Notes: a model not told the origin generated them from the letters alone. A stretch of DNA of 64,000 bases from Candidatus Sericytochromatia bacterium (GCA_035285865.1 JAYKHS010000028.1:44044-108043), one strand, 5' to 3'; counted from the stretch's first letter, positions 10,969 through 15,857 are shown. Translations and numbers: made by a program.

Positions 10969-11049
10969 GGGGGTGTGGCGGAATGGCAGACGCATCCGAC
11001 TCAAAATCGGACGCCGCAAGGCATGTGGGTTCGACTCCCACCACCCCCA
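10969..11049 (+). tRNA. tRNA-Leu (anticodon CAA)
   Basis: Acceptor stem GGGGGTG/CACCCCC pairs perfectly. D-arm GCGGAATGGCAGACGC. Anticodon loop cTCAAaa. Long variable arm typical of class II tRNAs. T-arm GTGGGTTCGACTCCCAC. Discriminator A. CCA not encoded. Confidence 0.85.
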
Positions 11050-11165
11050 CCTCTTCTCCCGTCCGCTGGACGCCCCCCGGTCTGCGCTTCGCGCGCCTTG
11101 CCAGCCGCCTCCTGGGGCGGCGTTTCCCGGGGTTGGTGGCGCAGGTGGCTCGTCGCGGCTTCCTG

Positions 11166-11891
11166 ATGCCTCGGCGCTTGCCTGCACGGGAATGGGAGCT
11201 GGCCGGAATCGGCTGTGGTCAGCCCTTCGAGTTTCTGCCCGGCCTGGCCGGCCTGCGTTGGCCGGCCGCGGGGCCCCGCATCCTGTGCATTCATGGCTGG
11301 GAAGGGCGGTCGAGCCACTTTGTCGCCATCGCGGAGCGTCTGGCCGAATGCGGCTTCGACGTGATGTCGCTGGATGGCCCCGGCCACGGCCGCTCGGCTG
11401 GCAAGTTGGCCCATCCCGTGGCGTTTGCCGAAGCCTTGCTTGCGGTCGATGCGGTCCATGGGCCTTTTCACGCCGCAATCGGGCATTCGATGGGGGTCTC
11501 TGCCCTGCTCTACGCGCGGATGCTCGGCTTGCGGATCGATCGCATGGTCTGCCTGGCCGGTCCTCTGCGCGCAGCCGAGGTCCTTGAGCGATTCATGGAC
11601 ATGATGGAACTGGTCACGCCGGCACGGGAGCGGTTCGTGGCGATGGTGGAGAAGCTCGTGCGCCAGCCCGCGTCTTTGCTCGAGCTCGACCTGCTGGCGC
11701 CTCATCTGGGCGTTCCCGGGCTGATCGTGCACGGGACGGCCGACCCCGATGTTCCCTGGACCGACTCCGAGCAGTTGGCTGCTGCCTGGCCCGATTCGGA
11801 CCTGATGTTGCTCGAGGGCTTCGGCCATCGCCGCATTTTGCGCGAGGAGGCCGTGCTGGATCGCATCGAGGCGTTCCTGCAACTGGCGTGA
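11166..11891 (+). CDS. alpha/beta hydrolase fold protein
   Basis: ILCIHGWEG...HF (HG oxyanion region), nucleophile elbow GHSMG, and C-terminal catalytic His (GFGHRRIL). An alternative in-frame GTG start lies at about 11133. Confidence 0.75.
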   Translation: MPRRLPAREWELAGIGCGQPFEFLPGLAGLRWPAAGPRILCIHGWEGRSSHFVAIAERLAECGFDVMSLDGPGHGRSAGKLAHPVAFAEALLAVDAVHGPFHAAIGHSMGVSALLYARMLGLRIDRMVCLAGPLRAAEVLERFMDMMELVTPARERFVAMVEKLVRQPASLLELDLLAPHLGVPGLIVHGTADPDVPWTDSEQLAAAWPDSDLMLLEGFGHRRILREEAVLDRIEAFLQLA

Positions 11892-11897
11892 GGGAGG

Positions 11898-12938: not shown

Positions 12939-12996
12939 AACCCTGAAAACGCGGAGTCATGTGCGCTGCCGGGCACGCATGCTGGGGCTGTGACCC

Positions 12997-14967
12997 TTGG
13001 TGTCCGGAGGCAACATGTCCGACTCAACCCCGCGCCGTTCGCGCCCGGCTGCCGCCGAATCACCGGATGCGTGGCTGGATCTGCTGACCCGCCTCGTCCA
13101 TCTCGACCTGCGCTGCCTTGGTATCCGGCGCGAGCTTCGACGACAGGCAGAGGCGCTCCAGATGGGAGACCTGCGGGCACCTGCACGAGCTGCGGGGCCG
13201 CTGCGAGATGAGCTGTCGGCGCTCGAGGCCGATGCCGTTCATCTGCGCCAGCTTCTGCCCGAGCAGCCTCGGCTCGAGCGTCTGCTCGAATACCTGGGGC
13301 TGGGGGACGATGGCCGTCACCTGCTCCACCTCATGTTGGTGTGGGATCGCATCGAGGCTCGCTCCATGGTCCTGTCCCAACTCGGGCCGCTGCGGCGTGC
13401 CGGCCGCGCGGCACATCTTCGGTCCGACCATCTCGTCGTCTGGCTGGATCGGGGTGGTCCGCCGACTGGACGCCACGCCACCCTGCTGCACGCAGACCAT
13501 CCGATCTGGGCCTCGGGCGTAGTCGAGCAGAATCGCTCGGGCGTGCATATGTCCGACATCGTCAGGACGTGGTTGCTCGGGGCGGATTGTCCGGGCTTGA
13601 CTGTGATGCGCCGCATCGGCCGTCCGGGTTCCGGGTTGCCGGGCCGTCTCGTCGTCGGTTTGCGGGAGTTGCTCTCGGGGGCCGGACCGCTCGTGCCCGT
13701 GGTCCATCTGCAGGGCTTCGCCGCAGAGCGCGCCGAACAGTTGCTGCGTTCTGCCTGGCGTGGCGTCACGGTCGTCCGGCTCGACTGGACCGTGCGTCCT
13801 GATTTCACCGCAGCTGGCCTTGCCGCGCCCGTGCGCGAGGCATGGGTCCACGCGGCGCCCTTGGTCGTGCTGCTGCCGGCATGTCCGCGCACCGGGTCCG
13901 ATCGGCAGACCATCCAGGACGTCATCCGATTCCAGATCGAGGCCCGAAGGCTCGCGGTTCCCCTGGTCCTCGTGACGCCTCCGGGTGGCATCTCGTTCCT
14001 GCCCCTGCTGCCACACGCCGCGACGCTTCTGCCCGAGTCCGGGGGTTCGCGGTCCGGCCTCCGCGACCACGCTGCGCGTCCCGTCCCGGATGCACGCCGG
14101 CAGGCGTATCCGTTCGAGGAGGGTCCTGCGGTGGCCACCCGGACTGGGCGCAAGCGTCGTCCTGCGCGCCCCGTGGCTGCAGAGGGCCCGACGCTCGCGT
14201 CTCTCGTCCTCGCACCGGATCTGCGCGAACAGGTGGAAGAGTTGTGCTTTGCCGCCAGGGCCGGGGCCGAAAGGCTGTCGGCCGTGCGCCTCGGACCTGC
14301 CCCGTGGGGCAAGGCCGTGGTGGCGCTGTTCGCCGGCCCCCCGGGGACGGGCAAGACGCTGCTGGCGACCGCGCTTGCCCAGCACTTGGGGCGACCGCTT
14401 GTGACCCGGACGCTGGGGCAACTGCTGGACAAGTTCGTCGGTGAGTCCGAGAAGCAGGTCGAGGCTCTGTTCTCGGAGGCACGCGAGCAAAATGCCGTGC
14501 TCTTCCTCGACGAAGTCGATGCCATGCTGGCTGCCCGTGGGGGGCACGCGCTACAGCGTCACGATGACCGCCTGGTCAACCACCTCCTCGTTCTCCTCGA
14601 GGCGCATGAAGGCCTCGTGCTCATGGCCACGAACCGTGCGGACATCCTCGATGAGGCCGTGCGCAGGCGCGTGATGTTCACGCTGACGTTCCGAGACCCC
14701 GGACCCGTGGAGGTCGAGGCGCTTTGGCGCCTTCATCTCGCACACCCGGACCTGCCGCTGGCCCCGGACCTGGACTTGACCGGCCTCGCCAGACGCTATC
14801 CCTTGCGGGGCGGCTATATCCTGCAAGCCTGCCGCAAGGCGGCCATACGTGGAGCGATGCGCGGCGAGACCATCGATCAGGCCATGCTCGAACATCTGGC
14901 TGCCGAGGCCTTTCAGCAGGCGGGAACGGGACGCGGCCGGCCGATGGGGTTCGGCCGGGGCGCCTGA
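12997..14967 (+). CDS. AAA+ ATPase with a large N-terminal domain of unknown function
   Basis: C-terminal AAA module: Walker A GPPGTGKT, Walker B VLFLDEVD, sensor-1 ATNR, arginine region RRRV. About 400 N-terminal residues have no recognised family. An alternative start lies at MSDST (13015). Confidence 0.8.
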   Translation: MVSGGNMSDSTPRRSRPAAAESPDAWLDLLTRLVHLDLRCLGIRRELRRQAEALQMGDLRAPARAAGPLRDELSALEADAVHLRQLLPEQPRLERLLEYLGLGDDGRHLLHLMLVWDRIEARSMVLSQLGPLRRAGRAAHLRSDHLVVWLDRGGPPTGRHATLLHADHPIWASGVVEQNRSGVHMSDIVRTWLLGADCPGLTVMRRIGRPGSGLPGRLVVGLRELLSGAGPLVPVVHLQGFAAERAEQLLRSAWRGVTVVRLDWTVRPDFTAAGLAAPVREAWVHAAPLVVLLPACPRTGSDRQTIQDVIRFQIEARRLAVPLVLVTPPGGISFLPLLPHAATLLPESGGSRSGLRDHAARPVPDARRQAYPFEEGPAVATRTGRKRRPARPVAAEGPTLASLVLAPDLREQVEELCFAARAGAERLSAVRLGPAPWGKAVVALFAGPPGTGKTLLATALAQHLGRPLVTRTLGQLLDKFVGESEKQVEALFSEAREQNAVLFLDEVDAMLAARGGHALQRHDDRLVNHLLVLLEAHEGLVLMATNRADILDEAVRRRVMFTLTFRDPGPVEVEALWRLHLAHPDLPLAPDLDLTGLARRYPLRGGYILQACRKAAIRGAMRGETIDQAMLEHLAAEAFQQAGTGRGRPMGFGRGA

Positions 14968-14969
14968 GC

Positions 14970-15857
14970 TCAGGGCAGGGCTGCGGCTCGGCGCGCTGCT
15001 GCGTACGAGCCTTTGAGGTGGCTGCGGCTCACATGCGTGTAGAGCTGGGTGGTCGAGATGTCGGCGTGGCCGAGCATCTCCTGGACCGAGCGAAGATCGG
15101 CACCATTCTCGAGCAGGTGCGTGGCGAAGCTGTGGCGGAGCGTGTGCGGGGTGACCTCGCGATCGATGCCGGCCGCCTTCGCAGCGTCCTTGACCACGAC
15201 CCAGATGGCCTGCCGGGTCAGGCGCCTGCCGGCGTAGTTCAGGAACAGCGCCTGTTCCGTCTGGCGAACGCGCAGGCGGGACCGAATGCGGGTCAGGTAG
15301 GCATCCAGGGCCTGAAGGGCTGTCTGGGAAAGTGGCACCACCCGCTCGCGGGAGCCCTTGCCGGTGCAGCGCAGCATGCCGGACCCCAAGTTCACGTCCG
15401 CGAGGTCGAGCGAGATCAGTTCCGTGACCCGAAGGCCGCCTGCGTAGAGCAGCTCCAGGATGGCGCGGTCACGCAGGTCGCGCTGATTCTCGATCAGGCG
15501 TACAACCTCCTGTCGATCCAGCACGCGCGGCAATTCGCGCGGCAGCTTCGGGCGTTCGATGTCGACCGTGGGATCGCGGTCAATTTCACCTTCTCGCAGC
15601 AACCACTGGAAGAAGGTCTTCAAGGCGGCCAGCTTGCGCGCGATGCTGCTGGCGGCCAGGTTCTTCTCCCGGAGATGGCGCACGAAGGCCGTGACCGTCA
15701 GGCGATGCACTTGCCGGATGTCCTGCGTGCCGAGACCGGCCAGGAAGTCCCGCAGTTGCGTCAGGTCGCCATGGTAGGCCGCGAGCGTGTGTTCGGAGAG
15801 GCCACGCTCGCTGCGCAGATGGTCGAGGAAGGTGACCAGTTGTTCGTCAAGCGTCAT
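14970..15857 (-). CDS. xerD: tyrosine recombinase XerC/XerD family
   Basis: 296 aa from MTLDEQLV. Conserved R...HxxR...Y catalytic region (HTLRHSFATHLLENGADLRSVQEMLGHADISTTQLYTHV). Confidence 0.85.
   Translation of the reverse strand: MTLDEQLVTFLDHLRSERGLSEHTLAAYHGDLTQLRDFLAGLGTQDIRQVHRLTVTAFVRHLREKNLAASSIARKLAALKTFFQWLLREGEIDRDPTVDIERPKLPRELPRVLDRQEVVRLIENQRDLRDRAILELLYAGGLRVTELISLDLADVNLGSGMLRCTGKGSRERVVPLSQTALQALDAYLTRIRSRLRVRQTEQALFLNYAGRRLTRQAIWVVVKDAAKAAGIDREVTPHTLRHSFATHLLENGADLRSVQEMLGHADISTTQLYTHVSRSHLKGSYAAARRAAALP

Follow-up and report, generated by a model that had tools for sequence, protein, structure and literature searches.

The three genes that follow tRNA-Leu(CAA) in a 64,000-nt stretch of DNA from a Candidatus Sericytochromatia bacterium (GCA_035285865.1 JAYKHS010000028.1:44044-108043; this whole stretch is called the window below) encode an alpha/beta-fold serine hydrolase, a divergent WYL protein and an AAA+ ATPase. 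Our comparisons showed that this operon belongs to the vertically inherited chromosomal core context of the Tanganyikabacteria/Sericytochromatia clade and is not mobile, that all three of its genes are under purifying selection, and that it brings known families together in an undescribed, clade-restricted combination. We read it, with about an even chance of being right, as a clade-specific, signal-regulated module made up of the hydrolase, a divergent WYL sensor-regulator and an AAA+ unfoldase which has the architecture of Cis15, an ATPase of contractile injection systems (CIS), and which stands here without nearby CIS genes.

The related loci (L001, L003, L004/L008 and L007) come from metagenome-assembled genomes (MAGs) of Ca. 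Tanganyikabacteria/Sericytochromatia, which are non-photosynthetic relatives of cyanobacteria. Within Sericytochromatia, the Tanganyikabacteria were described as a clade from fresh water (bioRxiv 10.1101/834861). A homologue search of 5.8 billion clustered proteins returned four full-length relatives of the ATPase and five of the WYL protein. The family was found in only 2 of 185,579 GTDB species representatives (a single MAG each from Ca. Tanganyikabacteria and Ca. Sericytochromatia), a scan of Joint Genome Institute (JGI) metagenomes returned Lake Tanganyika contigs only (n = 2), and scans of viral contigs returned no relatives of the family. About 20 kb were collinear with the window in L003, L004/L008 and L007, in the order SelO, DUF2330, three unnamed genes, 2-oxoglutarate (2OG) oxygenase, cytochrome c, one unnamed gene, MsrA and tRNA-Leu, followed by the hydrolase, WYL, AAA, XerD, FlhB, TPR and PPDK genes; L001 begins within the hydrolase gene and was collinear with the window downstream of that point. 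The context was the same wherever the contig of a relative was long enough to show it, and tRNA-Leu(CAA) preceded the hydrolase gene in L003 and L004, both of the scanned relatives that cover its position. Since the flanking proteins were 80-95% identical and synonymous sites were near saturation (synonymous divergence, dS, 0.7-1.9), the arrangement has been kept over a long divergence.

An earlier note on this DNA had raised the idea of an island, which it called unproven, and would have dropped it if related genomes all held the cassette in one shared context; this is what was found in all comparable relatives. Two other remarks of that note were borne out. The recombinase, convergent with the trio on the minus strand (14970..15857), does look like a housekeeping enzyme, as it passed the NCBIfam XerD equivalog cut-off (TIGR02225, 344.5 bits against 329.6), and it was 89-95% identical in relatives. 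No direct repeat of the tRNA 3' end was present either, only the tRNA itself matching across the 64 kb when up to three mismatches were allowed. A repeat search around the locus gave no meaningful repeats, and the GC content of the region was flat (0.66-0.70, with a window average of ~0.67). A tRNA-integrated mobile island was thus ruled out by the synteny, the identity of the recombinase as XerD, the lack of an att repeat and the flat GC content, and XerD is a syntenic neighbour, not a part of the module. The locus is a cautionary case: its tRNA, WYL, AAA and recombinase genes together resemble a defence island, yet they are ordinary, vertically inherited core genome.

The features named in the earlier note were all found where it had placed them, and the GPPGTGKT, VLFLDEVD, ATNR and REFRLDRI motifs were recovered in the translations. 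The hydrolase coding sequence (CDS), whose start is uncertain, is placed at 11025..11891, the middle open reading frame (ORF; 11898/11904-12938) encodes 346/344 amino acids (aa) and the AAA ORF (12997/13015-14967) encodes 656/650 aa, all on the plus strand. The spacings of 6 and 58 nt that had been given between these genes hold for the longest ORFs and not for the starts favoured by homologues and by a GGAGG site (ATG 11904 and ATG 13015), with which the gaps become 12 and 76 nt. As every one of the three genes has homologues, with ratios of nonsynonymous to synonymous substitution (dN/dS) of 0.07-0.45, well below 1, they are real genes and not chance ORFs.

Across genomes, the hydrolase and WYL genes were separated by 6-12 nt or overlapped by 4 nt, and the gap between the WYL and AAA genes was 58-167 nt. 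The order of the trio was also found in L087, a 1.85-kb contig (1-1854) that holds the tail of the hydrolase gene, the WYL gene and the start of the next gene, though its WYL protein is only 36-38% identical to all other members. That three unrelated genes happen to lie side by side in a syntenic core, and form no module, would be in keeping with the synteny of the whole 20-kb neighbourhood, which makes conserved adjacency weak evidence, and with a hydrolase that evolves like a housekeeping enzyme when the WYL and AAA genes do not. We nevertheless consider chance adjacency improbable because of the tight coupling, in each of the genomes, between the hydrolase gene and the WYL gene, the very narrow distribution shared by the WYL and AAA families and the recurrence of WYL-AAA pairing in other phyla; the trio also persists in L087 despite the divergence of its WYL protein.

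The middle gene (11904..12938, plus strand) encodes a putative ligand-sensing transcription regulator of 344 aa, which is a true but divergent member of the DriD/PafBC/CapW/BrxR class with a winged helix-turn-helix (wHTH), a WYL and a WCX domain. The earlier suggestion of a WYL regulator with an HTH is upheld by profile methods, with which Foldseek agrees; the direct Pfam WYL score is below the cut-off. The REFRLDRI motif occupies residues 215-222 of the 346/344-aa protein, and a hypothetical protein from a Candidatus Sericytochromatia MAG matches this protein at 100% identity. Pfam WYL matched three of the six family members (best 4e-6). An exhaustive profile search (HMMER, 1.84 billion representatives) gave eight hits and gained one more distant family member; the six distant hits were proteins of 306-343 aa, all six of which matched Pfam WYL at E <= 0.01 and five of which also matched WCX. 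The alignment of the WYL family with these distant WYL proteins by hhalign reached a probability of 99.8% (E 1.6e-28) over 292 columns and residues 9-342. Residues 243-342 aligned with the WCX part of proteins that, all but P0132, pass PF25583, and the window protein had no direct Pfam match to WCX. The wHTH was modelled by AlphaFold2 (AF2) at residues 8-71 with a pLDDT (predicted local distance difference test) score of 76-87, and it gave Foldseek local matches to the wHTH of ArgR, Zur and PadR (prob 0.9-1.0) and a weak ArgR profile match (E 0.045). When the PDB was searched with Foldseek, the 30 best matches were all chains of DriD, PafBC, CapW and BrxR, aligned over their full length, which we take as concordant evidence only, and a PDB profile search with the WYL family gave weak wHTH matches only.

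The C-terminal module of the ATPase is canonical, as had been noted, and is a classical AAA module of the VAT/Cdc48 D2 type. This active D2 (14200..14967) carries Walker A (GPPGTGKT), a KFVG pore loop, Walker B (LFLDEVD), the sensor-1 asparagine and RRR arginine fingers; it matched PF00004 at 9.4e-31 over residues 444-562, its best solved relatives were the D2 modules of VAT and Cdc48/p97 (6e-44), and it was 83-98% identical among relatives. The large N-terminal domain, which had been called undescribed, appears instead to be a divergent PF22977 winged helix followed by a degenerate D1, as judged from hhalign and from the L087 counterpart. The N-region of the ATPase aligned with the N-regions of proteins bearing both PF22977 and PF00004 at 94.3% (E 1e-7) over 244 collinear columns, and the N-terminus of the L087 ATPase is a canonical winged-helix domain (WHD; PF22977 at 2.1e-12, 47.6 bits against a cut-off of 27). 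A PDB profile search with the N-region gave nothing meaningful, and a word-indexed homologue search with the N-region alignment was uninformative, as not even family members were returned.

From these alignments, the N-region is predicted to consist of a coiled coil, a divergent PF22977 winged helix and a dead D1, and would not be novel in kind. Residues 1-80 (13015..13254) form a predicted helical hairpin or coiled coil (AF2 helices 17-49 and 60-80, pLDDT 62-89), residues 85-190 (13267..13584) the PF22977-like winged helix, residues 205-340 (13627..14034) the degenerate alpha/beta domain D1, and residues 341-395 (14035..14199) a poorly conserved, low-complexity linker (pLDDT 25-35, 33% identity to L004). 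D1 has no Walker A or B, lacking both GxxGxGK[ST] and an hhhhDE motif. The AF2 model showed the helical hairpin, a winged-helix-like part and an alternating helix/strand domain for D1, and Foldseek aligned 500-600 columns of it to the tandem-AAA proteins Cdc48/p97/Rix7. As both AF2 models, of this protein and of the WYL protein, were of low confidence, the identity of the top matches was used and not their geometry. In the published description of Pvc15 (PMC11495950), an N-domain homologous to DNA-binding proteins is followed by a D1 deficient in catalysis and by a D2 that is active, and we equate its DNA-binding-like N-domain with the PF22977 winged helix, which is our own reading.

Of five contexts of PF22977 proteins and other close D2 relatives, four were contractile injection clusters with the ATPase inside them and the fifth had unannotated neighbours, whereas sheath, tube, baseplate, Pvc16 and eCIS_core genes were found neither within ~10 kb of the locus in four genomes nor among 19 large ORFs of the window. 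The ATPase might load or unfold cargo for a CIS encoded elsewhere in the genome, as Pvc15 does with payloads bearing a signal peptide (PMC11495950), and both its N-region and its D2 are most similar to ATPases from within CIS clusters. We hold such loading in trans to be improbable, with no CIS genes in the regions searched: the ATPase sits inside the cluster in four of four CIS contexts, its conserved partners in this operon are instead the WYL regulator and the hydrolase, and some WHD-AAA proteins have surroundings that are clearly not those of a CIS, L009 in Myxococcota being one case. The L009 locus (6240-14842, from a Myxococcota MAG) encodes a PF22977 WHD protein (7.6e-30) with two AAA modules, whose gene adjoins a SWIM zinc-finger gene, a MoxR-type AAA gene, a DUF2201 VWA/metallopeptidase gene and RecC.

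Bona fide WYL-WCX genes were also found to adjoin related AAA genes in Zoogloea, in Chromatiaceae and in a MAG labelled as Rickettsiales, with D2 modules that were 36-46% identical. These loci of WYL-AAA adjacency are L010 5683-10762, L018 6808-10609, L014 5822-11377 and L016 ~6840-10570; the AAA modules are in tandem in L018 and L014, and a small gene of ~142 aa lies between the WYL and AAA genes in Zoogloea and Chromatiaceae. PADLOC recognised no system at these loci, the proteobacterial ones giving generic IetA/TRIP13 AAA matches only, and hhalign of the N-regions of the L010, L014 and L018 ATPases with the WHD, made from single sequences, reached 1-10%. It is conceivable, and we think distinctly unlikely, that the operon and these loci belong to an unrecognised multi-phylum class of WYL-controlled unfoldase modules of the Cdc48/Cis15 type. 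On this view a cargo-loading ATPase of an injection system would have been domesticated into an effector that stands alone and is triggered by a signal, the WYL protein and the N-region of the ATPase, which diverge rapidly together, would form a conflict (defence or antidefence) interface, and the hydrolase, with its conserved basic N-terminal leader, would be the client that is unfolded or activated.

The dN/dS values of the neighbourhood were 0.03-0.05 for XerD, 0.03-0.11 for PPDK, 0.07-0.14 for the hydrolase, 0.06-0.13 for the AAA D2, 0.21-0.31 for the WYL protein and 0.23-0.45 for the AAA N-region, and the evolutionary rate of the WYL protein and of the N-region of the ATPase exceeds that of the hydrolase, of D2 and of the flanks three- to fivefold. 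Three unnamed neighbour genes had values similar to those of these two (0.17-0.39). Between the window and L004, D2 was 83% identical and the ATPase N-region 47%. The hydrolase tail of L087 was 82-85% identical to those of the window and L004 and nearer to the window than that of L003, a calibration that rests on 39 codons and is hence suggestive at most, whereas the L087 WYL protein was an outgroup to all others. The WYL-AAA pair of L087 has either undergone very rapid evolution or been exchanged for another at a locus that stayed fixed.

These rates bear on whether the operon could be an anti-phage or abortive-infection cassette, in which a BrxR/CapW-like WYL repressor would silence the pair of AAA ATPase and serine hydrolase until infection, in the manner of IetA with its protease IetS. 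We regard this as unlikely. It would account for the WYL protein and the ATPase N-region being the fastest-evolving parts of the neighbourhood, for the strongly divergent WYL-AAA 'allele' that L087 holds beside a conserved hydrolase and for WYL-AAA adjacency in three other lineages, and the solved WYL-WCX relatives do include the defence regulators CapW and BrxR. The AAA module also matched PADLOC IetA (5.7e-27) and NCBIfam IteA (2.9e-26), but these matches cover the generic AAA core only, IteA (NF042959) scoring 92.5 bits against a cut-off of 510; no IetS-type subtilase is present at the locus, and neither the WYL protein nor the hydrolase gave any PADLOC match. Where defence systems are typically patchy in their distribution, this locus has stayed fixed in its core context over a deep divergence (dS 0.7-1.9); it bears no hallmarks of mobile elements, and no positive selection was seen, all dN/dS values being below 0.5. 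The trio had earlier been put forward as a candidate small stress/defence cassette; the defence part of that proposal found no specific support in the PADLOC run, which gave generic IetA/TRIP13 AAA matches for the ATPase only, and a stress module under regulation is plausible.

Candidate control points of the operon are suggested by the spacer between the WYL and AAA genes (12939..13014, plus strand), which includes a GGAGG ribosome-binding site. The motifs CC[TG]GA[AT]AA..GGAGT and CATGCTTG[AG]G were conserved in six aligned genomes including the distant L087 (spacers at 12939-13014 in the window, 11048-11116 in L004, 9935-10015 in L007, 1622-1690 in L001 and 1223-1323 in L087). A predicted fold of the 5' untranslated region (5'-UTR) pairs the GGAGG site in relatives (z -2.6 to -4.5); the z-score of the window, -0.84, was not significant. 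Both the motifs and the predicted pairing of the ribosome-binding site are to be regarded as candidates for control.

The WYL-WCX relatives DriD, PafBC and CapW are ligand-sensing, DNA-binding regulators, and the ligand in the solved relatives is a single-stranded nucleic acid. By analogy, a dimer of the WYL protein would bind DNA, and a ligand in its WYL domain would change transcription of the operon, the conserved spacer ahead of the ATPase gene being the likely control site. An ATPase hexamer would thread a client protein, specifically picked by the fast-evolving N-region, through the pore of D2 with its KFVG loop, and the co-translated hydrolase would act in the same pathway. We speculate that the hydrolase itself may be the client, recognised through its basic N-terminal extension of ~40 aa, an idea prompted by the recognition of payloads by Pvc15.

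Several of our results weigh against a signal-regulated module of this kind. The window WYL protein scored 15.8 bits with Pfam WYL (PF13280), the cut-off being 21.8, and a direct Pfam scan of the ATPase N-region gave no match at E up to 10 in the window and two relatives. The AF2 models of the WYL protein (pLDDT 49, the wHTH excepted) and of the ATPase (pLDDT 57) were poor, each being based on an alignment of five sequences, and the fold matches depend on signal that is local (3Di/sequence) and have low TM-scores. The search for CIS genes covered the ~10-kb flanks in four genomes and 19 large window ORFs, and a CIS cluster may lie elsewhere in these genomes. Palindromes in the spacer differed in place and sequence between genomes, with none in the window, and on account of this inconsistency no operator is claimed. 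Finally, the hydrolase evolves under a regime very different from that of the WYL and AAA genes, and it may be merely a transcriptional neighbour.

The hydrolase matched Pfam Hydrolase_4 (2.3e-15) and Abhydrolase_1 (9.9e-14), has a GHSMG nucleophile elbow and was 84% identical to that of L004, and no NCBIfam model reached its cut-off. Its conserved basic extension at the N-terminus adjoins a start that is uncertain. Translated sequence can be demonstrated from 11061, 10 nt past tRNA-Leu (10969..11051, plus strand; ARAGORN; Rfam RF00005, 60.6 bits), the codons of 11061-11147 having a dN/dS of 0.07-0.16. The sole upstream in-frame ATG, GTG or TTG in the window and L003 is a GTG (11025 in the window) inside the T-arm of the tRNA, and this GTG was in frame and followed by no stop in four of four genomes (window 11025-11147; L003 7920-8069; L004 9126-9275; L007 8024-8173). 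The hydrolase CDS therefore either overlaps the tRNA gene by ~27 nt or starts in a non-canonical way, and the coding region thus appears to begin at or inside the tRNA gene.

A conserved TATCAT ~12 nt upstream of tRNA-Leu is likely the -10 element of the tRNA promoter. The spacer between msrA and tRNA-Leu (10875-10968) holds a conserved GC-rich element, CCGGGGGGCGGGCGACCCGGG, at ~10902-10922. A promoter scan found no promoter-like site, and a terminator scan found two terminator-like sites, which is not above the mean of 2.9 for shuffled sequences. The stop codons of the ATPase gene and xerD are convergent and 2 nt apart (14965-14972 in the window), and no terminator-like structure was detected between them. 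Farther downstream, in the region 15976-18474, flhB (Bac_export_2, 4.1e-112) adjoins the gene of the TPR protein; no other recognised flagellar genes are near it, and the arrangement, kept in all relatives, would fit a non-photosynthetic lineage that has export genes of the flagellar or type III kind. Very long antisense ORFs of up to 1333 aa face real genes (13060-14550, minus strand; 18243-22244, plus strand; 11001-12689, minus strand) and are artefacts of the 67% GC content. A simple filter on GC content at third codon positions (GC3) was passed by the antisense ORF of the ATPase gene and failed by the true gene.

Should the reading of a signal-regulated module be right, ATPases of the Cis15/Pvc15 type, which are now being engineered for protein delivery, would not be confined to contractile injection systems, and a stand-alone unfoldase under a WYL sensor would offer a simpler natural system for client selection by the winged helix and D1.

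Compared with known systems, the operon resembles tRNA-integrated islands in its place directly 3' of a tRNA gene and in having a tyrosine recombinase near, and differs from them in that the recombinase is XerD, no direct repeat or compositional shift is found and its presence in relatives is invariant. It shares with IetAS (IteAS) the combination of an AAA ATPase and a partner of the serine hydrolase type; however, the partner in the window is an alpha/beta hydrolase and not a subtilase, and IetA has no counterpart of the long N-region, a predicted WHD and D1, of the window ATPase. The WYL protein matches DriD, PafBC, CapW and BrxR in domain order and length, these regulators are its only significant Foldseek matches, and it has kept the R-x-F-R-x-D-R-I strand motif. 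It differs from them by G-A-L-C in place of the W-Y-L triplet, by a loop of ~16 aa inserted ahead of the last WYL strand and by the position of its gene, which is in the middle of the operon and not upstream of it or divergent from it.

The D2 of the window ATPase is closest to those of VAT and Cdc48, and the KFVG pore loop and the tandem-AAA fold match also relate it to Cdc48/p97/VAT, whereas its D1 is predicted to be inactive, it has no double-psi barrel N-domain and it has no proteasome or ubiquitin-like partners. With Cis15/Afp15/Pvc15 it appears to share a winged helix, a dead D1, an active classical D2, pore loops and two to three arginine fingers, at a similar length (~650-700 aa) and with a D2 that is ~40% identical. 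It differs from these ATPases in lying outside any CIS cluster found, with no sheath, tube, baseplate or Pvc16 neighbours, and in having an extra N-terminal coiled coil and a winged helix beyond Pfam detection; its partners are a WYL regulator and a hydrolase, and it occurs in one Sericytochromatia clade only.

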